Of a DNA stretch of 64,000 nt, positions 643-59,164 are shown in pieces (the stretch's first letter is position 1; each line of letters opens with the position of its first letter). Source of the stretch: a virus. The notes below the pieces were generated by a model. The model made no database searches. It saw only the letters and a list, made by a program, of their open reading frames with translations, and was not told the origin of the DNA. The DNA lies in IMG/VR virus record IMGVR_UViG_3300045988_123906. One strand, written 5' to 3'. Made by a program: the position numbers and the translations under genes.

Positions 643-1038
643 TTAAGCTGTAGCAATCCGAGCCCAATTACCCCAACTATCATCCCCGCCATAGCGGTAA
701 TAAATATTCCCATTACAAAAAGCTATTTCGTAAGAATATCCTCCAGTATAGTCTTTCTAACCACACAGACCAAGTAAAAAACAATATTCGTTTCCACCAG
801 CAGACAAATTGACAGCTGAAGTTCTTTTTATTCCACGAAAAATCATTTTACCATGATAATCATCGTTATTTTTGTCCCCGTAATAATCAGACGGTGCTGT
901 ATTCGAATCTCTGTTATCTCCATCATCAACAATAAAATTATGAAAATGTTTTGATGGATTAAATTCAGATGGTTTATTCTGTACTTCATTCCATTCAGTG
1001 GTCATTTCGTTCCCGCTATTCATTTCTCCTAGCGCCAT
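643..1038 (-). CDS. small fibre-associated protein, 131 codons, in-frame TAG at 757..759
   Basis: SD AAGGAGG lies 8 nt before ATG 1038. The frame stays open past the TAG for 37 codons (KDYTGGYSYEIAF...WGNWARIATA) to TAA 643..645, which abuts the SD of the next gene. Confidence 0.6.
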
Positions 1039-1086
1039 ATAATCCTCCTTATAAAACGAATATTTTAGCAGCGAAAATTGCCACAA

Positions 1087-2793
1087 TCATGCGGTGCGAT
1101 ACCACATATAAGCGACCAAGTATGGCGGCATAGAAGATGCTGAACTAGTGTTTGAAATTAAATTATATCCGGCAGAATTGCGAGTGTCTGTTGTATAATC
1201 ACTGCCAACACCTGTATTTGAAACCATCGCATTGGAATCACCTGTATTTGCACCTTCGACAGTGCCTGCGATACTAGTTCCAGAATATTTTAATCCACGT
1301 AAAACTTCATTATCTATGCCCATAAATCCACCATAAAACAAGTTATATCGCAAACCCCAATTATGTTCATGTGTCGCTTCGCCACCTGTCGCTCCAGCTG
1401 CATAGCTATCTCCAGCTGCTAAAATAAATCTATCTTTGATTCTTTCCTATGTTCCACCAAACAACTCAGCGGGGCTTGTCGGTTTTACACTTTGATAAAT
1501 ACTTCCAACAGGGTGGTCGAGCAGTTTCTGTTCTTCTTTGGCTACCTTGATTGCCGCTGCTATCTTATTATCAACTTGTGCCTTGGTATATCCCTCAACA
1601 ACAGTACCACTGCCGCTATCTGTTTGTCCGCCACCTTGCACGATATAATACTGAGCTGTAATCGCAGCCGTTGGAACTGATACAGCTCTCAGACGCACAT
1701 ATCCATCAAAGGTCTCTGGGTTTGCAAACTGGGCGTATGAAGCTACCTTTGCACTTGCCGGTGTCACGCTGATAGAAATAACATCCTTTGAGGTGATTCC
1801 ATCGATGTCGAGGTCAATATACTTTGAATATCGGTCCACTGTATCGTCAGTAAGCTAACTTGTAGTTGGAATAGTCAGTGTGTGGATATTGATCGTATTT
1901 GCCTTTACTTTCAGCTTCTCGTCGATCTCATTCTGCTGGTAGTATCGCTCATCATGGGTGTGACCATCATCACTTTTCTTTGAGAGCTTTACATTGATTT
2001 CGTCTTCCGTATAATAGCGGTCATCGTGATTATGTTCTGTATTTGCTTTCTTTGCCAGAGCATCGCCAACAGCTTTGGCATCAGCGGCGAAATTCTCTTT
2101 TGTCAGGGTCTTGTCCACCGCAACAGAATCCAGCTTCAACCTGTCCAGCTCAGTGCGTACATTGGTCAGCCCGGTATCAGCCGATTTTGCAATACTCAGC
2201 GCCTCAGAGATCCTTGTGCCGGTCACCTTTGCATCAGCAGCACGTCCAGATACAGTCAGTGTCGCATCCACCACAACCTGCGGCGTAGGCAGGGGATTGC
2301 CGCTATCATCAACCATGCCGCCAGTGATCGCATCAATCTCTTTATTCGTCAATGCAGCCAGCAGTTCATCCGGGTGCGGGGTATCAATCGTGATATCGCC
2401 CGTCTCTCCAGTTGTCACTGTGGTCACACCACCGCCAGCGATTTTGATTTTATCCTGCGCTGTACCGTTCAGGATTAGATTGATATTAACTTCGCCATTG
2501 ACTGCGTTTTTGTCGGCTTCCAGTGTGAATTTTGATGGGTTCAAAAGAATCCAGTCATCGCCACTATAAACATACAAGCTGTCTGGACGCAGGTAGTAAA
2601 TCTTATTAGACAAAGGAGCCAGCGGAAGCGAGCTTACGATCTCCAAGTCTTTGCTGATTTGAATTCGTCTTGTGCCGATATCTCGATAAGTGCTTCCAGT
2701 ATCAGTACATACGATCAGTTGGCCGTCAATCACAGGAGCTTGATCAAGCTGAGACTGTGCGACCTCGCGTAATGATAAATTTGCCATACTCAA
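1087..2793 (-). CDS. tail fibre protein, 568 codons, two in-frame TAG (1855..1857 and 1447..1449)
   Basis: Three same-frame ORFs are separated only by TAG. It has HxH-D[DE]RYY repeats (HNHDDRYY, HTHDERYY). The C-terminal PVGSIY..FGGT[TAG]ERIKDRF..PPYLVAYMWYRTA pattern is typical of Firmicutes phage fibre/baseplate C-termini. Ends in TGA. Confidence 0.7.
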
Positions 2794-2852
2794 CTCCTTT
2801 GCTTAATAAGATTCACCACACAGCGTCATTGCCATGTGGTGAAACAAATCAA

Positions 2853-3947
2853 TTAGCCATCAAGGGATTTCCATGTAATAGCGCCTTCCAGCACCTGTAC
2901 ACGACCATCCATGGTGGTATTCAGACCATCTGCATAAGTCTTTGCACTAGCCAGAGCGTTATCAGCCTTAGTGGTTGCATCATCGGCGGCAGTAGAAATA
3001 GCCTCAGCCTTCGCAGCAGCCAGCTCGTCCTGAGTGGGCTTTGCATTCCAAGCCTTGCGCTCGTCAGCAGTGATATGCTTTACAGCATCCTTGATATGCT
3101 CGTCCAGCTTGTCATTAACGACCTTAACCTTCGCGTCTGCTTCAGCCTTGGTGTAAGCGTCCGGCACTGCAACATACAAACCATCTTCCTCAACGGTGAT
3201 GCTGTTATTGCCTTTGGTAGACACACGAATATTGACAGAGATCTTATTGTCATCAGAGACAGTGACCTCAGCAGTAGGAGTGACCACACCAACATAGATA
3301 TCGATCAGAGCGCCAACAGGGATCTTTACGACCTCGCCAGTGGTGATAGTCAGCTCGATCTCGTGGGTTTTTGTGTTGTAAGTACCAGTCTTCACAACCA
3401 GATCCTTGCCCAGATTGATCACCAGCTCATCGCCGCCAAACACAGGCAGCTTGATGGTACGGGTCTCAGCATCATAGGTGGGATCATGGGTCAGGCCACT
3501 CATCACGGTGGGAACAGGAGCACCGTTCTTTGCCACACTCAGAGTGCCGGTAGCAGGAGAGTAGGTGACATCCGTAACAAACAGACCTTCCTTGCCCTCG
3601 GTTGCGGCGATTTTTGCATTCACATAGTCAGCCACGGCCTTGGTGGTGGGCAGATTGTCATCGCTTGCATCCGCATTGGGAATCTCAGTCACAACGGGAC
3701 GATTCAGCTGTACAAACTCAGTACCATTCCAAATGTGGAAGGTATAGTCAGTCATACGGATATACAGCAGGCCCTGAATCTGTCCGCTTGCAGGCAGAGC
3801 GCTCACCAGCTTGCAGCTCTTGGTGTACTCATCTGTACCCTTGAAAATCTGGCGTGTGTCTGTAATAAAATACAATGTGTTGGCATCTTTGGTAGTCAGC
3901 TTATCATAATTCGCTTTTGTACCGTAGCCAAAATTTACATTAGCCAT
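2853..3947 (-). CDS. tail fibre / structural protein (364 aa)
   Basis: Uninterrupted ORF with SD GTGAGG. The N-terminus ANTLYFITDT..IFKG resembles fibre N-termini. Ends in TAA. Confidence 0.55.
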   Translation of the reverse strand: MANVNFGYGTKANYDKLTTKDANTLYFITDTRQIFKGTDEYTKSCKLVSALPASGQIQGLLYIRMTDYTFHIWNGTEFVQLNRPVVTEIPNADASDDNLPTTKAVADYVNAKIAATEGKEGLFVTDVTYSPATGTLSVAKNGAPVPTVMSGLTHDPTYDAETRTIKLPVFGGDELVINLGKDLVVKTGTYNTKTHEIELTITTGEVVKIPVGALIDIYVGVVTPTAEVTVSDDNKISVNIRVSTKGNNSITVEEDGLYVAVPDAYTKAEADAKVKVVNDKLDEHIKDAVKHITADERKAWNAKPTQDELAAAKAEAISTAADDATTKADNALASAKTYADGLNTTMDGRVQVLEGAITWKSLDG

Positions 3948-3962
3948 CTTTGCCTCACTTTC

Positions 3963-4328: not shown

Positions 4329-4358
4329 CTTTGCCTCCTTATAAAAGAAGCGGATGGC

Positions 4359-12303: not shown

Positions 12304-14784
12304 TTATTGTTCATCTGCCGTAGTGGCAGTTAATTCGGGAAAATATTTATCAAACAAATTGTCCTGATAGAACGTATATTTGTTGTTTACGATATAAGTG
12401 TAATAAGGGTAATAGCGGCTCATAGAAAGCGACATTGTGCCTTCACCCAGATTCATAGAAATGCTCTTGATGATCCAATCCACGGGGGTCTTACCGCCCA
12501 GATATTTGGCAGCATACTGGATCTTTTCATTCACGTCGAGCCACGGAACTAGTCGCGTAGTCACACTCAGGCCGTCAGTTAGGCGGGCACGCTTCCATAG
12601 TTCGTATTGGCAAACTTCCATAGCCGCGTCATCCGTGGTGTAATTCTCGTAGTCTCCACCCGATAGAATCTCGGTTCTACGACCGATCTTTTCAATGGAT
12701 AACCGTGCATTGTACAGGTCATCAATATTGTTCGGGTCATTCACACAGATAAAAGCCATATTGTCGCAGTTATCTTCTGCCTTTTGAGCTTCGATCTCTT
12801 TGGTAGCCGGGATTTCGTCCACCAGTTTTGCCATAGCGTGGCTCTGCTGTTGGCCCAAGAAGTAAATGCGGCCAGTATTCGGATTCCACTGAAGAACATA
12901 ATACTTTGTAGCCTTAATACATCCGGGGTCTTGAATGACATCTGAACCATTGGCATCAGTCAAAGAACGATACAGCGTGCTGGTCTTTGTCTCAGAGCCA
13001 ACTTGTTCATTGCCGTCTTTATCCTTGTACTTCCATGTAAATGTCAGCACTACCGTCATTGCGCCGCTTAATACATTACCGTTCTTATCCGTCTTGGCAG
13101 CTTCAACATTTGCAGGAGCCACAAAAGATACTTTCGTTTCACTTTTCCATGTTGATTCGGTTGCGTTCAATACAAGGTTGATTGTTTTATTTGTTCCAGA
13201 CCATCCTTTTACAGTGGCAGCTCCATCCGCTTCAATCGTTGCACCAAACACTTCAACGCAGTTTCGGACAGCGGCATAATCCACTGTGGCCGACTCGCCA
13301 TCGTTGGTCACAAGCTTCTCGAATACTTCTGGGTCAAGCACAGGCGGGTCATCAAATCCACTGGGAATTTCTTTGCATACAAACACATCATCGTCAAAAC
13401 GCATCTCAAACGGATAATACAGGTCACGCAATTCTGAGAGAATATCCCAAACAGTCGAGCCAGTATCATAATCCAAGTCGTGTGGAACAGTGCGGCTCCA
13501 ATAGTCGATAGAATATTTCTTAAACTCCGTCTCGTCTCTCAGTACCGCCCAGATAGCATCACCGATACGAGTGCCTTTCTCTATGCGATGTGTGCCACCA
13601 ACCAGCTGTCCACCCAAGTCTCCGTTGATACGAGAAACTAAGTCAACACAGCTTGCCTGCACAGTGTTTTCTGTTGCGCTATATGTAAAGCCATTGGATG
13701 TAAATGTATAGCACCCTTCGTTGTACCAATAGATTTTTACACCATCAACATAAGAACTGTCAGCTGAATTGGAATAGCTAAGGAACAGGTCGTTATACAG
13801 CTCATTCAGCGCAGTCTTTGTGTCAATCACTTCTGCCTGAATGTCGTGCATGGAATGTCCTACAAACACACTGGTTTTTCCGTAGGTCTCCCTTAATTCG
13901 TCTTCGCTCTAACCGGCAATGGCAGAAACATCCACCTTACCAAGCGTAACTCCGTTCAGAACCATACCTTCAACAGCAGCAATCATTCCATGGACATGCA
14001 TTTTGTTACCATACACGAAACTATCGATGCCTGATTTGTCTACCTCAAGGATATTGGCAGGGGAGAGACCGCCGCTCATTGACTTCGCTTTTGTTGCCAC
14101 AGCATCCAGATAAGCCCAGATATCATCCTCCACAAGCGGTACAAGTCCGTCTTTGGTCTGCAGCATCGGTGTAAATGCGATATAAGGTCCATCTTGACAA
14201 ATTGGGTCATCACTTCCCAAAACTGTAGAGTAATCACCAAGTTTGGTGTACCATTCTTCTGCTTCAGCTGGGTCATCCGGTGGCGTGCCGTCATTGATCT
14301 GGTCAAAGAACGTATGATACTTTGAGATATTGGCTCGTGTCCACACCAGCACATCTCGATTCAGATTGTCGATATTGCCGTATTTTGCATAGCCTCTATT
14401 TGTGATGTCCTGAATCAAATCATCATAATTCGTCGTAGCGAGCTGATAATCCGCATTTTCCCTGATCATCTCGTCAATACTCTTTGAAGCACTGATTTTC
14501 GACATTCCTCTTCCTGACAGACCAATGAATACACGCACATTTTTACTGATCCAATCCTCTTCCGTCAGGTTAGAAATGCCGCTCTTCTTACCCAGATACA
14601 GGGTCACATTAAAGGTTCGCCGCACGTCAGATTCTGAGTCGATAGAAATAGATCCATCAATCACAAGACCTTCCAAACTATCAATTGTAATAAAATCTTT
14701 GTTCAGCATATCAATGCGGCAGTAAATATTAGACGAATGATTGTTCAATAGCGCCAGGTCTGCGTCAGTCGGAAGATATGTCAT
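12304..14784 (-). CDS. baseplate/tail structural protein, 826 codons, in-frame TAG at 13909..13911
   Basis: ORFs 13909..14784 and 12304..13869 are in the same frame with an open linker. Homology to a TMP segment runs across the TAG. Has an SD at 14784 and ends in TAA. Confidence 0.65.
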
Positions 14785-16553
14785 ACGCTGCCTCCTGGCT
14801 GATAATCACTCAGCCCATTGTTATACATGTCGCTCTCACTCTCTGCGTCACCGAGCTCCACAAAGTCGAACTCCAATACGCCCTTGTCGTAATGATCAGA
14901 GCAGGAGATAGACACATTGCCATTGACACCCATTAGCCATCTGCGGCCATCAAACATCTTCAACAGCTTCGCGCTGCCGTTGGTCAGCCATTCGCTCAGT
15001 TCATCACGGAACGCATTGCCGCCATTGATATCAAAGTCTTTCATTGTGTTATCAAAACGGATGCCAACACCAGAGAAGTGGCCGCTATAATAATTGGCTT
15101 CACTGCCAGCAAACAGATACGGATACTTGCTTCCCATCGTTTCAACAACTGTAGCAGAACGTACCTTCTCAACACTGTCGACTTTTGGCTCAAGGAAAAT
15201 ATGGTAGGTCTTATTCCCATCAGTGATCACAGCACCATCAAAGTCACTCACAACGCTGGCCTTCGCATAGCCAAGCTCAATGCCATTTGCAACTGGAGCT
15301 ACGGCGTACTCATAGTCGGTCTTGCGACCAATGGCGTACAGGTCGGTGTAATCAATCATCACATAACCATCGTCAGCGCTGTACATATAAAAATCATTGA
15401 AGTCTTTTGGCTCCAAATCCTGATTCTTTGTTGCCGATACCTCAACACGATAGTATTTCATGTTGTTCAAGAAGGTCTCAGAGAACCACTCCTTGTATTC
15501 GCTGGAACTTCTGAATTCATCGGTCGATGTAAAATCACTTGATGCCTTGATGAACTTGCGGTCAGCAGTATATGCAATCAGACAAAACGCCTTGTCCTCA
15601 GATTTGAACTGAAAAGAAAGAACTCGATTCTTGTCGATATAATCCGAGGTCACTGCCTTATAGTTGCCCATCGGCTGACCAGTCGTTTTATTGATGTGAA
15701 GGTTTGACCAGCCCATCTTCATAATGACATGATTCAGATCGATCTTTTCCTGGTAAAGCGAAGTCCAGATTGCTGCGCCTTTCTTACGTCGCTTGATTCG
15801 CAGGGCATTTGCACCACTGCTTCTTGTCAGGAAATACTGTGCGTGCATACTGATATTTGCCATACGATAGTTATTCTGCACGGTGAATTCTACGTCATTC
15901 ACATACTCTGGATAGTCAGTTCGGAACGCCTGCAAGCCAGTGTCCAGCTGATAACCGCCAACAGATTCTGCCGTCGCTCTTAGATAGTACAGGGTGTGGT
16001 TATCCAGTCCATCGATCTGAAACCCTTTCAAAGAATCACGGTAATAATAGCTCACTGACTTTTTCAGCAGTTCGCGATTCGCATCATAAAGCCAGAATTC
16101 ATAACGGTTTACAGATTCACCCTCCGATACCTTATACTTGTAAGAGAACTCAAAGGAATAAGAAGGGTAGGGAATAGTAGTCACGCCGGAAGAACTCAGG
16201 TCGTTCAGTTTGATTGTCGGTTCCTCATGGCAATAAAACAGCAGCTTGTCCGAGTATTCTGAAAACAGATTCGTGCCTTTCAGTCGGCAGCGAATGATCA
16301 TATAATACGGATCTTTGCGGTTCTCAAACGTGCCTGCCGGAATTGTAAAATATCGTGCCAGACCAGTGCCACCGGCAGGGAATGTACCAAACTTATACAC
16401 GCCTTTTGAAAGCGTATCACCCTGCAAAATACTGCCCGTCGGAGTATCGAAGACGATAAGAGCAATGATATCAATGTCTGCGTATGCGGCAAACTGAAAT
16501 GTATGATCCTTTGTGGCATCAAATGCGCCGATTTTAGATAGAATTGGTTTCAA
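14781..16553 (-). CDS. tail/baseplate structural protein (590 aa)
   Basis: ORF with SD GGAGGTGA and a TTG start. Overlapping stop/start with both neighbours. Confidence 0.6.
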   Translation of the reverse strand: MKPILSKIGAFDATKDHTFQFAAYADIDIIALIVFDTPTGSILQGDTLSKGVYKFGTFPAGGTGLARYFTIPAGTFENRKDPYYMIIRCRLKGTNLFSEYSDKLLFYCHEEPTIKLNDLSSSGVTTIPYPSYSFEFSYKYKVSEGESVNRYEFWLYDANRELLKKSVSYYYRDSLKGFQIDGLDNHTLYYLRATAESVGGYQLDTGLQAFRTDYPEYVNDVEFTVQNNYRMANISMHAQYFLTRSSGANALRIKRRKKGAAIWTSLYQEKIDLNHVIMKMGWSNLHINKTTGQPMGNYKAVTSDYIDKNRVLSFQFKSEDKAFCLIAYTADRKFIKASSDFTSTDEFRSSSEYKEWFSETFLNNMKYYRVEVSATKNQDLEPKDFNDFYMYSADDGYVMIDYTDLYAIGRKTDYEYAVAPVANGIELGYAKASVVSDFDGAVITDGNKTYHIFLEPKVDSVEKVRSATVVETMGSKYPYLFAGSEANYYSGHFSGVGIRFDNTMKDFDINGGNAFRDELSEWLTNGSAKLLKMFDGRRWLMGVNGNVSISCSDHYDKGVLEFDFVELGDAESESDMYNNGLSDYQPGGSV

Positions 16554-17770
16554 GTTATCACCTCCGAATTATCCTTCGATATATAGCAAAGCTCACCATT
16601 GGTATTCACAGCCAGATTCAATGCGGCCAGAAAATTGTCAACAGTGATTTCTGAAATCGTTTTATTGATATCTGATACGTTCGTTTTCAGGGTCGAGATG
16701 TTGGTATTTGCAGCCGAAATCTTGCGTGTCATATCTTGATAGTGATTGGATTCAGCCGTTTTTGCGTAATCAAGGTCTGTCCTTAACGAAGTAATATCAG
16801 AAGCATTTTTCTCAATGTTGCTTTTATTGTCGTATACTTGTTTCTTTGTGGCGGTATAATCTTTGTTTGTGAAACCACCAATATTATTATTAAAGCCATT
16901 CATCGAGCGCCACAGACTAGCTACATCGTCGGCTTCTTTTGTCTCAAGAGCACTTACACGCTCAACCGCTGCGTTTGCAGTTGTGTCATCCGTATACTTT
17001 GTTGCAACAGCCCAGTCGCTAAATGTCTATTTTTCGGTTTCACCTCTTGCAGTAATACAGATATACAATGCACCACCGACACCGCCATAAATCCATAGAT
17101 CATTCACATCGTATGGAGCAGTCGGTGTGTCAGTAAAAACACGGACTTTTTCTGTCGCAAGATCTCGTGCGGATGTTGACATCGACAGTGCATTGATAAC
17201 ACCGGCATCAACAATTTCCATCCAGAAATACTGCTGTTTATCCTGGTCATATACCCAACGATAGCAAATGCCAGTCCTTTTATCATAGTAGATGTCGTTG
17301 ACGTGCGCTTGTTTCTCTTCATCTGTCTTCCAATCTGAAGCAGGATAGTTGTATGTATGCGGATGACCATTTCTGTACCAAGTATTAATGGTATTTTTCA
17401 GCTGATCCTGAACAGTATCTTCTGTCTGCTGGGATTTGTCTTTCATCGACTCAAACTCGGCGTTCAAGCTATCAACACCGGTCACCAGAGATTTCACTGT
17501 CAAAATCTCAACGCTGGTATTACTCTCCGATACGATCAGGTTACGGAAGTTGCCCTGCAATGCAGTCACAACAACCTTCTGGCCCACAATGTAGTCGTGA
17601 TTTGTTACAATGCCGTACTCGCCACCGAATACAGCGATTTTATAGTGCTGGTCTTCTTTTTCTGTAATCACTCCATAGGCGGACACGTCAAATTTTGCGT
17701 TCTTTACGGCGTGTTCGGCGGCAGAAGTCACCACCTCGGCCAGCACATCAGTTACTGATTTATCTGCCAT
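16550..17770 (-). CDS. tail-associated structural protein, 406 codons, in-frame TAG at 17027..17029
   Basis: ATG 17770 follows TAGGAGGAA. ORFs 17027..17788 and 16550..16903 are in the same frame and the 41-codon linker is open. Contains the motif NDIYYDKRTGICYRW..W. Confidence 0.6.
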
Positions 17771-26794: not shown

Positions 26795-27319
26795 TTACGT
26801 CGTAAGTAGTGTCAATATAAACTATGTCGAAAGAAGCTGATCTTCTATGTTGTCCATAATATTTTTAACATCAGTCTCATGGTCAAAAGCATCGCCGTAT
26901 TTGATTTCTTCTTGTGATGGAAGCTGAAAACTGAATACAGTATGTCCATTGTAATTACTTATTGAAAAATCTGTACGAGAAAGAATGTTCATCCCAATAA
27001 TAGCATCATAATCACGGTTACTATCTTTTAAAACCGTAAATTCTTCATTAGTAAAAGAAACATCAGAAGACAAAATTAAATTCGCAACAACAGAACTTCT
27101 TATTGCTTCATCTTCACCGAATTTGACCTGATAAATGTTTCCTGTTTCAGGAAAATCTAATCCATCAACAACCCACTGCATAACATAGCTCGCAACAGCT
27201 CCAGTATCAACAAGGGCTCGTACCTTTGCTGCACGATTATTGTGTTCGAGTACAGCAGGTATTATTATTGATTTTTGTACTTCATCATATGTGATAGTAT
27301 ATGTTTTTACTTCCGCCAT
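26795..27319 (-). CDS. retropepsin-like aspartic protease (165 aa to TAG 26822, 174 codons if the TAG is read through to TAA 26795)
   Basis: ALVDTGAVAS (DTG active-site motif) plus IIGMNILS, as in clan AA retropepsin-like proteases. Confidence 0.6.
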
Positions 27320-37291: not shown

Positions 37292-38092
37292 TTATCCTCC
37301 TATAGTTTCGTTTTCTTTGTCAATTCGCTCTATCCATTTTGACGGATCGTATTTTCCGCCCCAAACGGAATAGTTCATTTCGGCGATGTTTAGTTGTTTT
37401 GCGCGTAATAGCTGGGAGAACGTATCTCGTATCTGCCCAACTGTCAGCTCAAAGATGTTTGAATAATTCAAACTTGGATGAAAAGTGCATAAAAGAGAAA
37501 TCATGTTCGGCAGCTCGAAATTCGGGTCTGCCTTTTTTGTTTGTTTGAACTTTTTCTTCTTCTTTTGGAACTTCTCATAAAACAAGCGATCTTTTTCGGT
37601 CTTGAATTTTGGAGCTTCTTCAGGGATGTCGCTTTCGTCGATATCAACCATCTGCAAGCAAATCTTTGTTACGGTTGAATAGTTGTTTCTGTCGATATAG
37701 CCACCGATAGAAAATCCTTTTTTGCCGTTATTTTCTTTGTCGATAAAAATTGCTCGATGCTGCTCGTCCCACTCCAATTCCCCAGAAACAAAAAGACCCA
37801 GGGCCGAAATTAGTTCAGCCCTGGATTCATCTGTCGATGTAAGAATATCAAACATCGCAATATTTGCTTTTTGCTCACTTGTCATTTGCTCCCAGATATC
37901 TGGCATTTTCATCATAGTTGCCGCATCGTGGTAGTATTTTTCTGGGGTATATAAAAATAATGTCAGTGCGTATTGATACTGGGTGTATCCTATCTTCAAA
38001 ATGTCTTTCAGAAAAGGGGAGTGGATTCGCCCAACATCTTTTAGCTGCACGCCATATGGGCTCAGATGATCAAGGTACGATATTTTTCTCAT
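37292..38092 (-). CDS. hypothetical neck/tail protein (266 aa)
   Basis: ORF with SD AGGAGGG. ATGA overlap with the extended upstream gene. Confidence 0.5.
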   Translation of the reverse strand: MRKISYLDHLSPYGVQLKDVGRIHSPFLKDILKIGYTQYQYALTLFLYTPEKYYHDAATMMKMPDIWEQMTSEQKANIAMFDILTSTDESRAELISALGLFVSGELEWDEQHRAIFIDKENNGKKGFSIGGYIDRNNYSTVTKICLQMVDIDESDIPEEAPKFKTEKDRLFYEKFQKKKKKFKQTKKADPNFELPNMISLLCTFHPSLNYSNIFELTVGQIRDTFSQLLRAKQLNIAEMNYSVWGGKYDPSKWIERIDKENETIGG

Positions 38093-38589
38093 CAGCGAGC
38101 CCTCCTAAAAGAGCCAACCTGATAAACAAGTATTCGTCCGTAATAGCATTGCGCTGGCTTATAGATGCTGCTTCCAGCCTATTCAAGCGGTCCAATTCCA
38201 AATTCTTTGTTTCCATTCAGAAGCTTATCAATATCACTGGCCAAAATATCAATGCGTGTCCCAGCCTGTCCTTTCCGATGATATGTCTGCATAAGGTTTT
38301 TACTGCAATATGCAAATACGTAAATGGTCATCATCGTAATAGAATCACCGCTGGTTTGTTCTGGCACGACCTCAACACACAAAAACGTTTTTGAGTTTTC
38401 CTGCGTATCTGGAACATACTCATACTTAAACACGCATCCACCTTCACCCGACCCATTCTTACCAAGCAGAAGAGTTTCGGGATCGTCGATATTATCTGTA
38501 TTGCCCAATAGGACATCAAGGACATTTTCGTCATTGATCAACTTGGAAACGACCCGATTTTTGAATACCCCGATCTCATCGAGATTCAT
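38092..38589 (-). CDS. neck/tail-completion-like protein, 165 codons, in-frame TAG at 38179..38181
   Basis: Read-through adds AGSSIYKPAQCYYGRILVYQVGSFRRAR and ends in an ATGA overlap with the next start. The YYGR.L.Y.V pattern resembles the C-termini of neck proteins. Confidence 0.55.
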
Positions 38590-44111: not shown

Positions 44112-45635
44112 TTATGCCTCCTGTCTATCGGCGCTTACATTGCCAGCATCAGACAGGCCCTCGCCCTTACTTGCATTTGTTGGGCGGCCACCTTCATCCC
44201 CGGCGGAACCGGACTGAGTATTGGAGCTCTTGAGCGGTGTTTCACCAGCACTAAGTCCCAGGATTTCATTTTCAAGATAAGTCATGTTCTCATAATCGCT
44301 ACCCGCATAACCAGTAGTTGCAAGAGCGGCGGTTCGAGTCGGCATACCATAGGTGGCATCCTTGAGATATCTTTCATGCATCTCAGTCACGTTATAATGA
44401 GTGACTGGTAGGAAGTTTAGGCGGAACTTATAAGAACTGGAAACGCTCTTCAGCTTGCGATTGATCCAGCGCTCCAACTGTCGCATCACCGCAAACACGA
44501 TCTCCTGGTCATTCACGGTACACAGCTGCAGGGTAGTAGCAGAAGGATCTTCGCCACCGCCGAACAGATTCTTATTCACGCCAGCGCCTGTAAAGAATGT
44601 GGCCTCAGCATTTGCGACCTCTTTAGAGTCACTGTTCACGCCGCTCTTTTCAAAGTTCCAGCTACTGATCTTCATGGGAGTAAGAATTGCGCCAATATTC
44701 GGCGGAAGTACATTACTCATCATGTCATAGAACTCTTTTGCTGTATCATAGTCGATCAGGAAAGAGCCGTCAGCATCATTCACTGGAATCTCCATTGCCA
44801 GCGCCTTATAGTTATTGGTCTCACTTGCGTTTTTACTGATGGCACGGTAGTCTTCAATATCGGCAAGCGCACTAAACAAACTCACAAATGGGGGAATGGG
44901 GATATAATCGTGCTCGTTTACTTTGATGCAGATGGATTTGGAACTGTCCAGCTCTTGCCACTTGTAGTTCTGCGAGTCAGCCTTATATTGGTTATACATC
45001 GTCTCAAACTCTGGCGGATAGTTGGGCAGCTTGTCTTTGTTGGAATCAAAATAAGAAAAATCAAAAGCAAAATTATAAACGCCGTCTTCAATGCTGCTTA
45101 TTTTACAATAGTCGGCATCAAGATTTTGGAAAGCAAAACTGTCATTTGTCTCCCACGCATAGCCATAGTAAACATCATCGCGGAATGCAATTGTCAGTAT
45201 CTTCGTAGCTTCGTGCGGGATATTCATCAGCTCAACTGCTGTTACAGCGGAATAATATGCTTTCTTAAATTTATTGGCGTTAATTGTCTTAGAGCGATCA
45301 AGTCCATACGGAGAGATCGTGTAAGAGTATGTAGACATATTCGCAAAATACTGAATCAGTCGGCGATAGTAATTTGAAATATTGAATAGATATTTACTCA
45401 TATTTCGTAGCTGCTTCTCATAGTTGGCTGGGTTGCCAAGATAGGTTACGATCTGATTTTTCGTATATTTTGTATATGTTGGATTTGTGTCGGTACTCGA
45501 TGCTAGATTACGGATACCGATATGTGACAGGTTCGCATAAACGCCATTGACAAGATCCTGATATGTTACATAAGAGGTCTTACCATCTTTGGCATTTGTT
45601 ACGCGGACCTTTTTCTGCATTTTATCTTCAGCCAT
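44112..45635 (-). CDS. portal protein (507 aa)
   Basis: Called from its size and its position immediately after terL. SD GGGAGG. Confidence 0.65.
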   Translation of the reverse strand: MAEDKMQKKVRVTNAKDGKTSYVTYQDLVNGVYANLSHIGIRNLASSTDTNPTYTKYTKNQIVTYLGNPANYEKQLRNMSKYLFNISNYYRRLIQYFANMSTYSYTISPYGLDRSKTINANKFKKAYYSAVTAVELMNIPHEATKILTIAFRDDVYYGYAWETNDSFAFQNLDADYCKISSIEDGVYNFAFDFSYFDSNKDKLPNYPPEFETMYNQYKADSQNYKWQELDSSKSICIKVNEHDYIPIPPFVSLFSALADIEDYRAISKNASETNNYKALAMEIPVNDADGSFLIDYDTAKEFYDMMSNVLPPNIGAILTPMKISSWNFEKSGVNSDSKEVANAEATFFTGAGVNKNLFGGGEDPSATTLQLCTVNDQEIVFAVMRQLERWINRKLKSVSSSYKFRLNFLPVTHYNVTEMHERYLKDATYGMPTRTAALATTGYAGSDYENMTYLENEILGLSAGETPLKSSNTQSGSAGDEGGRPTNASKGEGLSDAGNVSADRQEA

Positions 45636-47392
45636 TACAGTCCTCCCTTCTTTAATACAGGCGCTCTAAAGTTAAACGTGAGCGAAGTTGGCTTTTTATT
45701 CTTCTTCTCCATGCTTCGTTCAACTTGCTGCGCAATGTAATAGTTGTAAGACAGGGAAGAGTAGCGGTCTTTACGGCAGCCGGATTTCTCCTTGACTTTG
45801 ATAACGTTATTCACGGTTTCGTAGCCCAGATTTACAAGCTCGTTTACAGCAAGTCCGGTATTGATATATGGCATCTGTAGTGCGGCTCGTTCAGTAGGCG
45901 ACATTTTATCATAGCCTTTATAGATTTTGCGCAACTGGTCTTCACATCCGTACTCACTCTGAAGCAGATGGATACGTCCTTGCTGGAAACCGCTGCGTAA
46001 TCCAATGGCTACATCGCTATTAAACTGGGAGCTGCCCATAATAGCCTAGATGACCTTGCGAGCATTTTTGTCAGCACAGCGAGATGCGATTTCTTGATTG
46101 TTACAGCAGCTAATCGCAGGATACGTTTCGCCTGTTTCTGGGTCATACATATCGCGCATTAACAGGTCGACCAGAGGTAATCCAACGCCTCTACAGTCAA
46201 CCCCGATATAATCACAGTTGAAGTAATCGAAATACCGTCGCAGTTTTAGTGCCTGGTCTTGCGCACTCATACCCTCAACGTTCTCTGAATAGACAAAGTT
46301 GCTGGTATAGCGCCCTGATTTATTCGGCAGCATACAGTTCAAGAATATACTGGTTGCGTCGTTGTCGTTTTTGCGACTGCTCATCAATGCAATATCGGCA
46401 GTAAGAATTCGCACTTCACCATTTTTCTTTTTCGGCACATCCATAGCAGCTTGATTAAGTAAAAGATTCGGTGCGTAGAACGCCTTTTCAATGACGCGCG
46501 TTTTGTTGATGTCATCAAATTGAAATAAGCCGCCTTCGGTAGCACCAAGCCACTTACATTCGTTCTCCATTGCAAATGTCAAATCAGAAAAACTGGATTC
46601 ACTCATTTCATCTTCTACAGCCTCCTTCAACAGCAAGCCGCTCTTGATTGACATTTGATACGGGAAGGATACGCAGAAATATTTTTTATTAAAGTCGATC
46701 ATATTTACGAAGTAGTCCTGACATTTTTCATAGCTCCAATGGTTTTGGAACCAAGCAGAACTTAGATAGAATTCTTTATTTCGCTCTGCAAGATGTGCAT
46801 ATTGTGGCTTGTCCAAATATCCAGGATGACGAACAATATTCAGGAACTTCTTCAAAATCAAATCAATAACATCTTTAGATAGTAATCTATATTCATCACA
46901 GATAAGAAGTGTAGCTCGACTACCACGACTGCTATCTGTTGCAGTGACAACTTTGATATAGCTACCGTTCCTAAATATAATTTCTGCCTTTTGATTATTG
47001 ATATCGACCTTTTTGATTTCAGATCGTAGAAGGGGACTATTGGGGTAGATCTCCTTCATTATCTTTTCATCCAAAATACTGATAGATTGGCTTCTTACCT
47101 TACAGGCAATACAAACCTTGGAACCAGGCCATAGAATACATGTAATCACACAGAAAACTGCGGTTAGAAATGACTTACCAAGGCCACGAGCAGCAATGAA
47201 GCAGAAGCCGGTACATCTTACCATCAAAAACAATAGTAGCTCTTGGAATGGCTTCAATGTCAGGTTTAAATAGTCTTTTGCAAACCGCTGAGGATTCGCC
47301 CTATAAAATGACGCCCTCAGGGCAACTGCGTTCATTATTTTTTCTGATTTTGTATTCGCTACTTCCTTATCTGTTAATTTCTCTTTACTCAT
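45635..47392 (-). CDS. terL: terminase large subunit, 585 codons, in-frame TAG at 46046..46048
   Basis: Walker A ARGLGKS and Walker B LLICDEY. ORFs 46046..47392 and 45635..46039 are in the same frame, separated by TAG plus 2 codons. The downstream piece supplies the nuclease-side C-terminus (KDRYSSLSYNYY). Confidence 0.85.
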
Positions 47393-48387
47393 GCGGAACC
47401 ACCGCCTTCGCCAATACCGAAAATAGTTTCGCGGAGGCTAGTATCTGTGGCATCGTCCTCATTTGTCTCTGGTTTATGAGCAGTATATCGTTCAAACTCT
47501 TCGTCAAATTCGTCTTGATATGGATTCTTTAAGTTGAACATCTTAAGCAACGTGCCCAACACCCATACTCTGAAATACTTACCGATACCATCAACGTCCT
47601 GCCACTCTGGCGACGGCTCTGGAATCGGTTCTTCCTCTTCCTATTTCTGAATCAGCGTGCCAAAAGTATTCGTCTCAGCCAGTGCGTTATCGTTCGTCTG
47701 GTTCGGCTTGATTTGGGCAGAACCCATTAGGTTTTGTAGGTTATCGTTTGCCTCTTTGATCTTTTTGGTATCACCAGTGGCATCAGCCTTATCGCAATTA
47801 AGTTCTGCCTTTGCAATGCGTTTGAACAGAATTTCTTGTGCGGCCGTCTTACATTCATGTCTAGTGATAAGATTTTGATAGTGCTCATCAAGGAATAAAT
47901 AATCTTTTTCATCCAGACCAGTACCCCAGAATTTTCTCATCTTCAGAGTGACCTTTGTCCCCTTTGTATCACCGGCAGCCAAAGCGTCTTTTTTCTTCTG
48001 GTCGATCACATCGTCATAAGATTTATCTGCATACTGACGTATATTAAGCCGTCCCATATAGGTGTTAATTTTTAAAGCAGATGCCACAGAATGTTCTGAA
48101 GCGTCAAGCAATTTATCATTTACATAGGTATCGAACATCATAGCCAGACGGTCAATCGCTTCATCTTCATCGTTATACTTCTTAACATAAAACTCAAACA
48201 TCTTCTCACGGCACTCATTGCACCACGGGAGGTATCCGTCGTTACCAATAAACCATTGACTCTTCGTTTTTGAGAAATTACCTTTGCGCACGTCATAGAT
48301 TTTTCCGCAACACATACATTTACCACCACTCCAAGAGGGCGGAACCTTGATACGAGGCGGTTTCTTATCTGCGGCAACTCTGGCCAT
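47389..48387 (-). CDS. terminase small subunit-like protein, 332 codons, in-frame TAG at 47641..47643
   Basis: SD GGTGGTGA before ATG 48387. Read-through adds 83 acidic codons and ends in an ATGA overlap with terL, which has no SD of its own. Confidence 0.55.
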
Positions 48388-48788: not shown

Positions 48789-49973
48789 TTAAATTACTAT
48801 CTTTGCTGGCTTCTCCAGCTTGACATCGTACAGACATTCTAGGCCGCTGTCATCGATTACAGCCACTGCCTGTTGCGGCACATCATTCTTGCGCAGTCCA
48901 ATTGCGTAGGAATCGCTGCCACAAACGCAGCCGCTCTCAATAACCTTCGCACCATGCACCGTTGTCATGCCGTTTGTGTGGCGGTGACCAAGGAACGCCA
49001 TGTCAATTGGCTGCTTCACCATCAGTGTCAGGTGCTCAACGACGTTAGCAGGGGAGTCTTTATCTCCATGTGCGTACATCACAAGACTATTCCTAGCTTT
49101 AAAGCCACCAAAGGTCGGATCGAGCTTCTCTGTTTTAATATCAATGCCAGCCAGATTTTGCAGCCGTGCCTTCATATAGAACGGGATCAGTGCCTCAAGT
49201 TCATCGCCTGCTACCTGATCCTCTTTGCTGGGGAATACTCGTGAATGATTGCCACTCACAGAATACACGTCAATATGCTGGCATACCTCGTACAGTGTAG
49301 CAACAAAATTACTTACCAGCTCTGCAGCCGTCATAACCTGCTCAATGCTGTTTTCATTGTTCTGCACGCGGGTATTAACATGGATATGCCCATTGATCAG
49401 GTCGCCCAACAGCAGCACATGAATCTTTTCGGCTGTATGTCGCGCTACGATATTGAACACCTGTGCAGCATAACTCTCAAGCCTAGCTTTCAAGATATCT
49501 TTGTTGAACTTATTCCACGCCGAATCAATACCCGCGCCAGCATGTAAATCAGACAAACACACAATCACATCGTGACCGCTGTCTTCGTATTGCACAACAT
49601 TCAGAAAGTTGTCAGGGTTATACGGAGCAACGTTCTTCAGAATCAATTCCTTAACGGATTCGGCACGGGCAACATCGCGATACACTTTGTTTGCTGCATT
49701 GCGTTCATCTTGTAATTTGATCTTTTCAATCTTCAGTCGCTGTAGTTCATCCTGGATTGTTTCTTCGTTGGCGTGATCAATAGCGTAGTCATAACCATCT
49801 TTCCACGACTTATAGGTCTTGCGGTATCTGCATTCGCCATAGTCTGAGCCGGTTGCTTCATTCAGCAGTTCTGCTGCCTGATTCTAAGTCAGCTTACGTT
49901 CGCTGCATGCCTCACCAATCCGCATCATATATTCATCAAAGGTCTCGCCGTCCGCTTTCTTAAATTCGTCCAT
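48789..49973 (-). CDS. metallophosphoesterase, 394 codons, in-frame TAG at 49884..49886
   Basis: Calcineurin-type motifs LSDLHAG, GDLINGH, GNHS and GHRH. SD GAGGTGG before ATG 49973. The N-terminal 96 codons are open across the TAG. Confidence 0.7.
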
Positions 49974-50255: not shown

Positions 50256-51068
50256 TCATTTCGGTCGTTTGTTTCGATTCGCATTCTTTTTCGCTAGACG
50301 TGCCTGTTCTTTCTTTGCCGCACATCCTTTGCAATATCTGCTGGCATTTGGCTTTTCTGAGTGATACTGTTCGCCACACACGATGCAATAACATTCCTTC
50401 GGGTCAAACAACTCTCGCACTATGGCGCTTAGATTCAGCCGATTGTTTTCAAGCATCACATTGAACGTGTACGCAATCGTGTCATTCTTATCAAGGGCAA
50501 AATTTGGGTACTGGTATAAGCATCCAATGTCGTCAGTGCCGGTTCTGTTCAGCAGGTGATAGTCGTCAGAGATCTCTTTCATGCCCCGCACTGTATTATA
50601 GCCGTCGTCCTAGTTCTTCCCAGCGCAATACATGATCTCTGTCTGCTCTTCAAAGCAGCCACCAAAACGTTTCATCTTAAACTCAGTATCCAAGGCAAAG
50701 GTATCACTTCCATACAGTCGGCAGAAGAATATTACCCCAAACAGAACACGTAATTGTGCGTAGTTGATATGATACTTTTGGCGCGCCTCTGTGATATAGT
50801 CCAGATCTTTCTGATAAAGCACAACTTGATGTACGTCAAGTATGGGCGCGTTATTTTTACGGCCTCTGCTGAACGTCTGGATCAAGTGGCTACGGTCATA
50901 GCTGACAGACTCAGGATTTTTCATCCGCTCATAATAAATGGTGGCGCATTCAATAGGGGAGAGGGAGGTTCGCTTCAGCAGATTTCGCAGCATCAGATTT
51001 GACTCGTGATAGTCCTGCCAATGATCGAGCAGCATATTCTCATTACAGTAGAAAGTTGTATATGCCAT
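50256..51068 (-). CDS. hypothetical protein, 270 codons, in-frame TAG at 50610..50612, C-terminal CxxC..CxxC and basic tail
   Basis: ORFs 50610..51068 and 50256..50591 are in the same frame with an open 6-codon linker. Confidence 0.55.
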
Positions 51069-54544: not shown

Positions 54545-54727
54545 TTAGTCCTCGTCGTCGTCGTCCCACATTGTGCGCCGCTTCCGCCGCTCTGATTGCC
54601 GCTGGCGTTCGCCGCTTTCCTGAGCCTTCTCAACTTCCTGCAAAAACTGATTCTCGATCATACGCTGTTTGCGGGCGTTACGCATATAGCTGCTCTTAGA
54701 TACCTTATCACGCTTGCGATCACTCAT
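54545..54727 (-). CDS. small highly basic protein with a DDDDED tail (60 aa)
   Basis: GAGGAGGA before ATG 54727. Ends in TAA. Confidence 0.5.
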   Translation of the reverse strand: MSDRKRDKVSKSSYMRNARKQRMIENQFLQEVEKAQESGERQRQSERRKRRTMWDDDDED

Positions 54728-54995
54728 CGTCGCCGTCCTCCTCATCATAACCATAATCATCTGGGCAGTACATCTCATGGAACAAATATCGTGTCAAAGA
54801 AGGGGACATAGGTGTACCATCTTCCATCCACAACGTATCATAAAGCGATGCATTGCCGATCAGTTCCTGCTATTCTGCATATACCTGAATCGCGTCAAGG
54901 ATATCCTCGTAAGTTACATCATAATCGCGCACAGCATCAGCTACGGCAAATCCAATATTATAAATATCCTGTTTTGAAAAGTCGTTTTCTTTCAT
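54720..54995 (-). CDS. hypothetical protein, 91 codons, in-frame TAG at 54870..54872 (not in the ORF track)
   Basis: TAAGGAGGAA before ATG 54995. MKENDFSKQD...QVYAE[TAG]QELIGNAS... runs to TGA 54720. Confidence 0.5.
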
Positions 54996-55886: not shown

Positions 55887-56209
55887 AATAGTGATTCGCA
55901 GACACACTCGTTTTCTGCCTCGACAACATTAGGAATTGCAATCGTCCACAGTGTGTCGTGTCCCATTCCATAGTATTTTACTTCCGCTTGAACTTCACGC
56001 TGGTTACCATTTGCGTCAATGTAAGATACGATTTCGTTTGTGGTTCGCAGTGGTTTATCGCTTGGCAGAGCCCATGTGAATCCATCTTTCGCCCAGTCAA
56101 AAGTAAACTCGCCACTGTTGATATCATCGGGATATCTGTACTTACACCATCGCAACGTGCGATCATCATGCAGCGTATCAAATCTATTCATTGTTGGCAC
56201 CTCTGTCAT
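55883..56209 (-). CDS. CxC-tail family member d (108 aa, ends ECVCESLL)
   Basis: ORF with an ATGA overlap. Confidence 0.6.
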   Translation of the reverse strand: MTEVPTMNRFDTLHDDRTLRWCKYRYPDDINSGEFTFDWAKDGFTWALPSDKPLRTTNEIVSYIDANGNQREVQAEVKYYGMGHDTLWTIAIPNVVEAENECVCESLL

Positions 56210-56670
56210 ACCAAGCTGTCACACACGCATTCATCCCGCTGCACTTCTTTAGGCGCAGTTGGCGGTGTAAACTCAACCTCGCTCGGATCGTATGTCATCA
56301 AAGAACAGGCATCGATTCGCACATTCGGGAAGCACATGAACTTAAAGCATCGGTCAATATCATCAACAACAAGTGGCTTATCCTCTAAGTGCAATCCACG
56401 ATAATTATCGGGAGGACAAGTAGTTGTTATCACGTGAATACTGTATTCTCCGCGAGCTCTGCTTTGTAAATCCACTATAAGGCATTGATGATCAACCCTA
56501 TACCCCTAATATTGAATATCAAGGTTCCTTGCGATTTCCTTGATATAGTCCTGTGCACATAATATAGCCGTCCCGCCCATCGGCACCAAGATGTTACAGT
56601 TGTTCTTAACAGCGTATTCGCAGATCGCATATGTACGTCCACCGCCTCGTGGCGCTAATATTCTTTCCAT
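56206..56670 (-). CDS. CxC-tail family member e, 154 codons, in-frame TAG at 56506..56508 (ends ECVCDSLV)
   Basis: AAGGAGGG before ATG 56670. The frame is open across the TAG into ORF 56206..56475. Confidence 0.55.
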
Positions 56671-56682
56671 ATTTCACCCTCC

Positions 56683-57488: not shown

Positions 57489-57589
57489 ATACTGTACCCT
57501 TTGTTACTCATACGACCTTCGGTATCATCAGGTTTGCGCCGCGCTCTTTTACGAACTTGTCGATGAAATACTGCTGACCCTTCTGTCAT
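57485..57589 (-). CDS. 34-aa basic peptide (MTEGSAVFHRQVRKRARRK...)
   Basis: SD TAGGAGAA. ATGA overlaps at both ends. Below the ORF-track cutoff. Confidence 0.35.
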   Translation of the reverse strand: MTEGSAVFHRQVRKRARRKPDDTEGRMSNKGYSI

Positions 57590-57759
57590 GTTTGTTCTCC
57601 TATGTATTTCTTGAATAACTCTACTATTTGTTCGAATTCCGCTTCTTTGTAACGGTCATACAAAGCTTTCGCCAAACCGTCAATCGCTTCATAGTTCCAG
57701 TCGCCAGTAGGAGAGATGTAATCCATTAGTCGTAAGCCGTCTATTCTTACTTTTATCAT
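57586..57759 (-). CDS. hypothetical small protein (57 aa)
   Basis: AAGGGGTG before ATG 57759. Ends in TGA. Below the ORF-track cutoff. Confidence 0.45.
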   Translation of the reverse strand: MIKVRIDGLRLMDYISPTGDWNYEAIDGLAKALYDRYKEAEFEQIVELFKKYIGEQT

Positions 57760-57772
57760 TCTGCTGCACCCC

Positions 57773-59164
57773 TTAGTCTAACAGGTCAGCCAGTTGTGCT
57801 GTCTCGCTGCGTTCCGTCTTGTTCAGGTAGACATATCCAAAGTGCGGGTTACCAGCCAGACACTGAATTGCTTTACGCATTCCGCTGTTATTTTCAAACA
57901 CGGCCTCGTCAGTCTGCTTCAGGTCACCATCAAGCCACAGCATAGATCCCTCACCAACACGGCCGAGTAACAGCTGTACATGCTCTTTGGTCAGATTCTC
58001 AGCCTCTGAAACCATAATAATTGCATTCTTGTAGTCGCGGCCACGAATAAATCCAAGGTGAGCTACTTCTACCTGCCCATTATTGATCCAGTATTCCAAA
58101 CCAGCCTTGCCGCCCAAGTGATCAGCCAGAGGGCCAGCAAAAGAAGCAGCGCCGAGCTTCTCTAGTAGGGTACCGGGTAGTGCGCCCAGCTCCTTGGTAT
58201 TCTTGACTTCGATGTTATTGCGAATCCAGATCAGCTTCTCAACTTTGTGCTTCTCGATCATATCAATAGCAGAGGACACCATAAGCATTGTCTTGCCGCT
58301 GCCGAATGTTCCAGCCAGCATTTTAACGGTAATATCGTCGTTCTGCAGCATATCAAATGCGAGCTTCTGTTGATCATTGAGTGGTTTTACGTCGCCAGTG
58401 AAGCGATTACTGATCTTTTTGTATTTGAGTGGTACATATTTCTTGCCATTCCATCGTAGCCAGCCTACCGCATTACCTGCCGGCATATCATCGTCTACTG
58501 TGTCTGGATCACGAACAATCAGATAGCCATTCACTGGAGTGTCAAACAGATTCTGATATGTATAGCCTTCATCGTGGGTCTGATATGCCATCGCCATGGC
58601 TTCCTCGCCGCCTTCATCAAGAGTGACTTCGGTCTAGCCAGTGTAGTTATTGTTGGCGCTTACTGCTGCATCGGGATAGGTGAATTCGATCGGCAGGTAA
58701 AGAATGCCGCTGGCAATATTGGCGCAACTTAGGTCGCTGGTAACGAACTTGAAAGAATCAATGTTGGCCTGGATCTGTCGCTGTGCTTCCGGGAGCCCGG
58801 CTTCAATCGCGTCATCCAGGTTGCGCTGCATCTCGTCCAGATACCAGCGGGCGGTTGCCATGATTGTCGCGTCGTTGTTGTCACTAATCGGTTTGCCATC
58901 CAGAATATAGAACAGGGAAGACATTGGGACTGCCACTACCATAAAGGTGTTGTCGTCGTGATGCTCGGCCAGCAGGCGGGTTACAGTACGGGCCTTATAG
59001 CGGATCTCTTCGCTCTTCTTGCCGCTTGTTTTGATCTCTTCCAGCTCATGCAGTGTCATATCGGCAATCAGAAACGGCTCTGTTGCACCAGAGGCTGTTG
59101 CACTGGCAGGTTCGAAAGCGGCGGCTCCCAAATCAAGAAGCGCGGAGGTGTCATAAAACTTCAT
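57773..59164 (-). CDS. phoH: PhoH2-like PIN-PhoH ATPase, 463 codons, in-frame TAG at 58634..58636
   Basis: The N-terminus is PIN-like (FYDTSALLDL). The C-terminus is PhoH-like (Walker A GTFGSGKT, GALPG, FIRGRD, Walker B IIMVSEAEN). The two ORFs are in the same frame with an open 12-codon linker. Confidence 0.75.

Follow-up and report, generated by a model that had tools for sequence, protein, structure and literature searches.

UAG probably read as tryptophan in an SPbeta-like phage of Faecalibacterium prausnitzii: evidence from comparative genomics

What does the codon TAG stand for in a phage in which it interrupts gene after gene and ends hardly any of them? The question is raised by a 64,000-nucleotide (nt) stretch of the IMG/VR virus record IMGVR_UViG_3300045988_123906 (the whole of which is called the window here), whose initial annotation, made from the sequence alone, had listed 17 minus-strand TAG codons (“cta” on the plus strand), each splitting an open frame, had proposed that TAG is a sense codon throughout, and had pointed to translation table 15, i.e., to glutamine (Gln), as the established precedent. 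The analysis reported here, for which about 290 loci of relatives, together spanning most of the window, were fetched (80 around the gene of the large terminase TerL, 73 around that of a 590-amino-acid (aa) tail protein, 56 covering the end of the tape-measure gene, plus flanking ones), keeps the sense reading and changes the residue: taken as a whole, the explanation that an SPbeta-like phage of Faecalibacterium prausnitzii decodes UAG as tryptophan (Trp) is highly probable.

That the codon is read as sense rests on the continuity of everything that surrounds it. All 17 sites hold a minus-strand in-frame TAG within a long frame bounded by TAA or TGA, and a codon-usage model trained on the window’s own TAG-free genes gave a positive log-likelihood, in the same frame, on both flanks of 14 of them, with negative scores for the other two frames; values of about zero or below were obtained around 29471, around 56506 and downstream of 38179, which lie in genes of atypical composition or in a short tail. 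The TAG-bearing genes contain no in-frame TAA or TGA, and no frameshifts were seen across the 64 kb. As the same TAGs come back in dozens of assemblies made independently (Logan, ENA, JGI, IMG/VR), the window itself being 100% identical to two contigs derived from the Human Microbiome Project and 99.7–99.9% identical to Logan assemblies with the same TAGs, assembly error, which had been named as one way for the idea to fail, is excluded. A rough call of 54 minus-strand genes returned 30 TAA stops, 24 TGA stops and no TAG stop, and the six plus-strand open reading frames (ORFs) taken as genes all stop at TAA or TGA. The 17 codons are spread over 16 genes, so the “about a third” of genes said to be miscalled becomes roughly between one fifth and one third, according to the number of small ORFs included, and TAG amounts to about 8.3% of the Trp codons in the window’s minus-strand genes.

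Domains and homologues run across the codon as well. The large terminase TerL, a YonF homologue (45635..47392, minus strand, as are all the genes given below; TAG 46046-46048), does regain the C-terminal part it had been predicted to regain: the restored protein aligns with YonF of SPbeta at 39% identity over residues 16-566, with the TAG at residue 449, and about 130 other phage terminases align over the same residues, so that the homologues run on through the position instead of ending at it. In the adjoining 332-aa YonG_N-type protein (47389..48387; TAG 47641-47643), the match to PHROG 3314 covers residues 23-298, across the TAG at residue 249, and the gene ends in an ATGA overlap with the TerL start. 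A second overlap of this kind had been claimed at 38092; there, the stop of a 165-aa gene (38092..38589; TAG 38179-38181) overlaps the ATG of the next gene, which is preceded by a Shine-Dalgarno sequence, as TGATG instead. The tail fibre (1087..2787; TAGs 1447-1449 and 1855-1857) carries a Pfam Gp10_C match at residues 425-565 that crosses the TAG at residue 447, while PHROG 16381 matches residues 107-381 of a 406-aa tail protein (16550..17770; TAG 17027-17029) across its TAG at residue 248. PIN and PhoH are, as had been proposed, one fusion gene (57773..59164), with PIN_4 at residues 5-113, PhoH at 259-450 and the TAG (58634-58636) in the linker between them. With coding signal, Pfam and PHROG domains and homologues all continuous across the TAGs, which leave the genes fragmented if ignored, the codon is almost certainly translated in this phage.

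Which amino acid it specifies can be approached through the codons that relatives carry at the same positions. At 11 of the 17 sites, TGG is the main or sole alternative. The balance of TGG to TAG is 3 to 3 in a small tail-fibre-region gene (643..1038; TAG 757-759; AAGGAGG and an ATG start at 1038), 57 to 15 in the 406-aa tail protein, 67 to 2 in a 2438-aa tape-measure-like protein (17845..25161; TAG 20854-20856), 49 to 20 in the 165-aa gene at 38092, 37 to 48 in TerL and 29 to 55 in the YonG_N-type protein. It is 26 to 53 both in a metallophosphoesterase (Pfam Metallophos_2; 48789..49973; TAG 49884-49886) and in a 270-aa gene (50256..51068; TAG 50610-50612), and 32 to 45 in a 91-aa gene (54720..54995; TAG 54870-54872). 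A 77-aa gene (27327..27560; TAG 27513-27515) shows nine TGG, one TAC and two TAG, and a Zn-ribbon/HNH-type endonuclease ORF with a PHROG HNH endonuclease match, which lies in an intron-like insert (28763..29743; TAG 29471-29473), has TGG in the three relatives with the same insert. CAG or CAA was seen at none of the 17 sites in any of the relatives’ loci compared, so that what would be expected of genetic code 15, namely TAG aligned with Gln in standard-code relatives, gives way to TGG and Trp.

More distant homologues tell the same. At fibre site 1447 (...AELFGGT-X-ER, X being the TAG), W is present in 107 homologues and “Q” in 11 close clusters, and the one such entry read at the DNA level, the public protein P0002 (L392 1501-1974, the L-numbers being those of our fetched loci), owes its Q, at an otherwise invariant Trp position, to a TAG that the gene caller of its source translated under code 15; the remaining Q entries at this site are suspect, and P0227 is a second public protein suspected of the same. 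Among 120 homologues covering the TerL site (...VI-X-AIMGSSQFNSDVAIGLR), 115 have W, four Y and one Q, the last being a member of a 98%-identical cluster and probably another product of code-15 translation. The 826-aa tail protein (12304..14784; TAG 13909-13911) has TAG in all 77–78 relatives, and W in seven of seven orthologue-type homologues at about 40–62% identity (AIAGW, AIANW or AISGW). The paralogue alignment noted earlier as running straight across this TAG is real, but that paralogue has Glu there, the tape-measure paralogues in general having A, E, C or S, whereas Trp stands in the true orthologues. The endonuclease has its TAG at the W position of the protein’s three FCSxxCxxxW repeats.

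Over the family as a whole, the fetched loci hold 50 in-frame TAG sites at which the coding signal is good; of these, 37 alternate with TGG and five with CAG (TAG being present in one to three genomes at each of the five), a split that has a binomial p of 5e-14 when compared with the 32% of TGG plus CAG codons that are TGG. Conversely, at the window’s 199 TGG positions, TAG occurs in at least one relative at 34 and TGA at none, the corresponding TAG counts for other window codons being 8 of 644 for Gln, 2 of 789 for Tyr, 2 of 1227 for Glu and 0 of 1297 for Lys. TAG is tolerated specifically at Trp-encoding positions. It is against these numbers that ordinary amber recoding, TAG as Gln under table 15, perhaps through a suppressor charged by glutaminyl-tRNA synthetase (GlnRS) as in E. 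coli su7, has to be held. Such a reading has precedent behind it, Gln being the only TAG reassignment reported for phages (Borges et al., preprint; Peters et al.) and the one assigned to other gut phages of ~136 kb (the phAss-1 paper, PMC10607447), and it could also draw on the Q in database proteins at two sites and on the TAG/CAG alternation at the five family sites. The database Q that was checked is, however, TAG itself under code 15, hundreds of relatives are without CAG or CAA at the 17 sites, TGG alternates with TAG at 37 of the 50 family sites, the Trp positions take TAG far more readily than the Gln ones, and the near-invariant Trp of deep fibre and TerL homologues means that many conserved W-to-Q changes would have to be tolerated; together with the nature of the suppressor tRNA described below, this leaves the Gln reading improbable.

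Several points nevertheless weigh against Trp. The residue assignment derives from comparative genomics. Two sites are uninformative, as TAG is present in 7 of 7 covering loci at 1855 and in all 11–12 relatives covered at 58634, and 13909 is likewise devoid of an alternative codon within the family. Two others vary in a different manner: in the YonO-like single-subunit RNA polymerase (PF05183; 51609..54062; TAG 53991-53993; Pfam RdRP E = 1e-16), relatives have TAG 27, TAC 16, TAT 9, GAC 16 and GAT 9, i.e., Tyr or Asp codons, and in a 154-aa gene (56206..56670; TAG 56506-56508) they have TAG 28, TAT 12, AGC 2 and TGC 2, i.e., Tyr, Ser or Cys codons. CAG is replaced by TAG at a few sites in single genomes, and one TAG of the window, at 26822, acts like a stop. 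From the codon pattern it follows, all the same, that the inserted residue, whatever its identity, works at invariant Trp positions, and the comparison as a whole makes it very likely that TAG is Trp in this phage.

The preference for Trp positions could also be of a less orderly origin, as TGG to TAG is a G-to-A transition and the element is a prophage in bacterial contigs of 200–660 kb, so that nonsense mutations in a decaying prophage, G-to-A hypermutation or sequencing and assembly errors might be invoked. TGG to TGA is a G-to-A transition just as well, and the contrast of 34 TAG with 0 TGA among 199 positions rules out decay and hypermutation; coding signal continues past the TAGs in genes free of other in-frame stops and of frameshifts, the TAGs are shared by dozens of assemblies made independently and by IMG/VR viral contigs of ~140 kb, and a matching suppressor tRNA exists, all of which makes this explanation hardly credible. 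Dcm-type deamination at CCWGG, considered as a source of the TAGs, was rejected, since the site contexts do not fit. Editing of the mRNA from UAG to UIG (adenosine to inosine, A-to-I), read as Trp in the manner of the amber/W site of hepatitis delta virus, would yield the exact equivalence of TAG and TGG; no sequence or structure context is common to the sites, the tRNA with anticodon CUA is present and sufficient, and we know of no bacterial A-to-I mRNA enzyme beyond TadA, which targets a specific motif, so that editing, too, deserves next to no credence.

The element in which all this takes place can be named with some precision. The window encodes a YonF-type TerL, a YonO-type RNA polymerase (PF05183) and a YonG_N protein and shows strong AGGAGG ribosome-binding sites, a set indicative of an SPbeta-like temperate phage of a Firmicute; its proteins are found on bacterial contigs of 200–660 kb, adjoining an integrase and host genes, the organism in the nr records, two of which (PDX67889.1 and PDX79263.1) stem from sequenced strains, is F. 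prausnitzii, and IMG/VR holds many contigs of about 135–150 kb. The window is thus part of a roughly 135–150 kb SPbeta-like temperate phage of F. prausnitzii, and of a very common family, one protein of which is indexed in 12,587 data blocks. The phage has a GC content of 44%, and that of F. prausnitzii is about 56–57%, a large gap for so widespread a prophage; an AT-biased mutation pressure would favour TGG to TAG changes.

A decoder is available in the same genomes. The tRNA with anticodon CUA, a search for which in the complete genome had been suggested by the initial annotation, was found in same-lineage relatives, in the second of two tRNA arrays, and none lies within the window, where no tRNA was detected (ARAGORN; Rfam at gathering and at E ≤ 1). 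The first array, about 9–12 kb to the right of the window, comprises Pro, a long-arm “Met/Ile” tRNA, three Leu and Gly, with no CUA anticodon in the IMG/VR relatives, and the second is some 50 kb to the right, within phage DNA of 44% GC. There, tRNA(CUA) sits between tRNA-Lys and tRNA-Ser in 20 of 20 recoded-lineage loci with the array scanned; one such locus (L287) is on the same contig as L050, which matches the window’s TAG pattern at every covered site. Three sequence types occur, all with G1·U72, G73 and the anticodon loop CUCUAAA. Against the Trp loop CUCCAAA, this has one substitution, C35U, by which the tRNA is turned towards UAG; all three types end in ...GGCGT-G-CCA with G73 as discriminator. 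Each type aligns best with Trp tRNAs, including the phage’s own tRNA-Trp(CCA), and presumably stands close to the tRNA-Trp of E. coli and B. subtilis as well. The first pair of tRNA-Trp in these two bacteria is A1-U72 (weak); the G1·U72 of tRNA(CUA) is the pair also present in the phage’s own tRNA-Trp(CCA) genes, and G1-U72 with G73 has been reported as the identity set of rice mitochondrial tRNA-Trp, G73 being the major Trp identity determinant in E. coli and B. subtilis (PMC9976931). The phage tRNA-Gln genes, on the other hand, are set apart from it by the pair U1-A72, the D arm GCCAAGCGG and the loop CUUUGAC, and the nearest tRNAs of the suppressor are Trp ones, not Gln ones, which again counts against Gln.

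Here as well, some observations weigh on the opposite side. The array is known from relatives and is located outside the window. The anticodon is not the C34 C35 A36 of tRNA-Trp, the Trp identity element C35 being replaced by U35, and the tRNA-Trp amber suppressor of E. coli is largely charged with Gln by GlnRS (PMC9976931), a precedent that is the chief reservation about the Trp reading. The absence of the suppressor from non-recoded lineages is seen at a single locus, L368, the one non-recoded locus that searches with the tRNA-Phe and tRNA-Trp(CCA) sequences gave, where the order is Phe-Trp(CCA)-Lys and the CUA tRNA is missing exactly between Lys and the shared downstream flank. On balance, it is quite likely that the phage tRNA(CUA) is the decoder of TAG.

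Another candidate suppressor, a tRNA-like gene with a 3-bp anticodon stem (L040 9247-9315; L036 7560-7628; L029 11899-11967; Rfam tRNA 40–51 bits, missed by ARAGORN), was rejected, as CUA is confined to the 7-nt loop of an unrecoded lineage (AGCUAAC), that of the window lineage (GGCUGAA) reading CUG. The arrays hold further oddities. The long-variable-arm tRNAs of the first array (91–92 nt, A73, anticodon CAU or UAU; L017 19497-19588; L016 20029-20119; L029 9153-9243) unite a type-II body, as in Leu, Ser or Tyr tRNAs, with a Met/Ile anticodon, which is unusual. The second gene of the suppressor array (L277 16469-16541; same slot in L279-L318) has a U/A-rich acceptor stem and an anticodon loop that varies by strain (AUA, AUG, GCC, GUA, UAA, or a 6-nt loop). 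A full-length transfer-messenger RNA (Rfam 91 bits), with ANNNSYRCAA as its tag peptide, lies in the first array of one relative (L018 6650-7034), where tRNA-Pro and the long-arm gene flank it.

The change of code appears to be both recent and graded. Within 21 kb around TerL, lineages at 82–89% TerL identity have 0–5 in-frame TAGs (mostly 0) and the window lineage 5–11, the TGG count dropping as the TAG count climbs, and strains with 99% identical TerL are site-by-site mosaics of TAG and TGG, a polymorphism that points to drift and not to placement under selection. Family-wide, genes stop almost without exception at TAA or TGA, and as this near-absence of TAG stops extends to the unrecoded lineages, it fits the idea that TAG depletion precedes recoding (Borges et al., preprint). 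The claim that every clear gene end of the window is TAA or TGA nearly holds, at least one exception being the TAG at 26822-26824, the first stop of another 165-aa gene (26822..27319), which occupies an ancestral stop position: relatives have TAG 13, TAA 3 and TGA 1 there, the TAA and TGA being those of sister lineages, a TAA follows 8 codons downstream in the window, and the downstream sequence is a conserved promoter-like TTGACA-N17-TATA. It would seem that a genuine TAG terminator has survived here, backed up by the TAA. The tape-measure gene TMP1, in turn, stops at TAG in 19 sister-lineage loci and at TAA in the window.

Such remnants lend themselves to a different reading, namely that TAG is still mainly a stop, passed at a low level by a suppressor or by near-cognate tRNAs, and that each TAG serves as an attenuator; besides 26822 and the TAG-terminated TMP1 of the sister lineages, the presumable presence of release factor 1 (RF1) in the host and the fact that only about 8% of Trp codons are TAG would agree with this. 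The codons are, however, placed in proteins needed stoichiometrically or in every virion (TerL, tape measure, fibres, tail proteins), their TAG/TGG polymorphism among 99%-identical strains looks neutral and not regulatory, a dedicated tRNA(CUA) is conserved, and near-cognate read-through of UAG would not prefer Trp positions, so that attenuation is unlikely.

The following sequence of events would account for the Trp reading. The Trp-featured tRNA(CUA) of the second array, as seen in relatives, would be charged with Trp by the host tryptophanyl-tRNA synthetase and would outcompete RF1 at UAG; with the suppressor present, TGG to TAG becomes near-synonymous and TAGs would hence drift in, as the substitution pattern shows them doing, in a family in which TAG had already nearly gone as a terminator, the few persisting ones being backed by a nearby TAA. 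In a lysogen in which the suppressor is not expressed, TerL, tape measure, fibres and the YonO-like RNA polymerase would be truncated, which may add a translational lock on the lytic genes.

TMP1 is split by the insert already mentioned, an intron-like insertion of 1315 nt (28562..29876) at a place where 52 of 56 relatives are uninterrupted (...DADTVG-TTLKSL...). Its length is not divisible by 3, and the last letters of the 5' exon and of the insert are T and G, respectively, a group-I-like arrangement; Rfam recognised no group I or other known intron family within the 1315 nt. The insert includes both TAG 29853 and TAA 29850, which are therefore not a gene end. In one relative, 277 nt are inserted at this position, and a further ~254–259 nt are found inside the TerL coding region, with the protein match complete, in L086, L088, L090, L097, L103-L105, L107, L116 and L121 (TerL match 10001-~11600), which may be a second small intron. 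A RAGATH-5 RNA is located in the window at 61384-61436 on the plus strand (52 bits, above the gathering score), and the early region of relatives holds a pistol ribozyme and a type-P5 twister ribozyme (L017 8540-8606; L029 1675-1765), so small self-cleaving RNA motifs seem to be plentiful in the family. As to proteins, the 154-aa product of 56206-56670 ends in ECVCDSLV, and a multi-copy family of ~95–130-aa proteins ending in C(C)ESLL or CDSL(L/V) is arranged in tandem in the early region (L036 536-1708, 3793-4188).

To our knowledge, UAG-to-Trp is absent from the NCBI translation tables, and phrase and term searches of the literature found no report of TAG or UAG read as Trp. In phages whose code is unlike that of their host, only TAG-to-Gln and TGA-to-Trp have been observed (Borges et al., preprint), and TAG recoding has been equated with table 15 or left without an amino acid (Cook et al.; Nayfach et al.; PMC10607447). 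With the Trp evidence set beside this lack of prior reports, amber recoding to Trp in a phage would be new, and we consider it likely that this is the first natural UAG-to-Trp code, apparently seen while the change is still under way, in a very widespread prophage whose gut-bacterial host can be cultured. Should that be so, the family would offer a natural and tractable system for stop-codon capture after the gain of a suppressor tRNA, with graded intermediates, a likely cause in the gain of tRNA(CUA) and a clear TGG-to-TAG route, in which codon-capture and ambiguous-intermediate models could be tested on population data. The dependence of terminase, tape measure, fibres and late RNA polymerase on a suppressor may serve as a safeguard of the lysis-lysogeny decision in F. 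prausnitzii, which matters for gut health, and a Trp amber suppressor of natural origin, seemingly not mischarged with Gln, could be of help to synthetic biology. There is a more mundane consequence, too, as gene callers aware of TAG (prodigal-gv and similar) put Gln at it, so that the proteins are mistranslated.

Set beside the code-15 phages of the gut (crAss-like, Lak and the Garnet and Topaz prophages; Borges et al.; Peters et al.), the phage described here shares in-frame TAGs in structural and lytic genes, a phage tRNA(CUA), a scarcity of TAG stops, a host presumed to use the standard code and close standard-code relatives; it departs from them in that TAG there is Gln, as confirmed by proteomics for crAss-like phages, whereas here the TGG/Trp pattern is accompanied by a Trp-like suppressor. 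With the code-4 phages, in which TGA is Trp (e.g., the Jade clade), it has in common the capture of a stop one transition away from TGG and a mutated suppressor of the tRNA-Trp type, although the codon and anticodon are UGA and UCA (a change at position 34) in those and UAG and CUA (position 35) here, where TGA, moreover, remains a stop (24 of the 54 called genes). E. coli su7, the amber suppressor form of trpT, has the same C35U on a tRNA-Trp body, but it is a laboratory mutant charged mostly with Gln (PMC9976931), while here it is a natural phage gene for which the codon pattern indicates Trp.

The phages of the proposed “Phassvirus” (PMC10607447), phAss-1 among them, are likewise from the gut, have genomes of about 136 kb and tRNA-Sup-CTA genes, and contain TAG in roughly 40 of their ORFs; phAss-1 as a close relative was rejected, its TerL being 22% identical and no nucleotide match being present. 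Its authors assign Gln, yet by eye, both suppressors have the loop CUCUAAA, and the anticodon arm of Sup1 is Trp-like. In the phAss-1 sequence OQ749652 (L391 12445-12610), both tRNA-Sup-CTA genes hold CUCUAAA within GGUCUCUAAAACC, and one of the two suppressors combines a Trp-like body with A1-U72 and G73; a codon-substitution check of the Gln published for this group may be worthwhile. The kin of the phage are, rather, the SPbeta-like phages (Bacillus SPbeta and phi3T, Clostridioides phiCD211), with which it shares a YonF TerL (36–39% identity), a YonO RNA polymerase, a YonG_N protein, a size of about 130–150 kb and a lysogenic lifestyle, and which are annotated with the standard code, whereas here the host is Faecalibacterium, the GC content is about 44%, and TAG is recoded.

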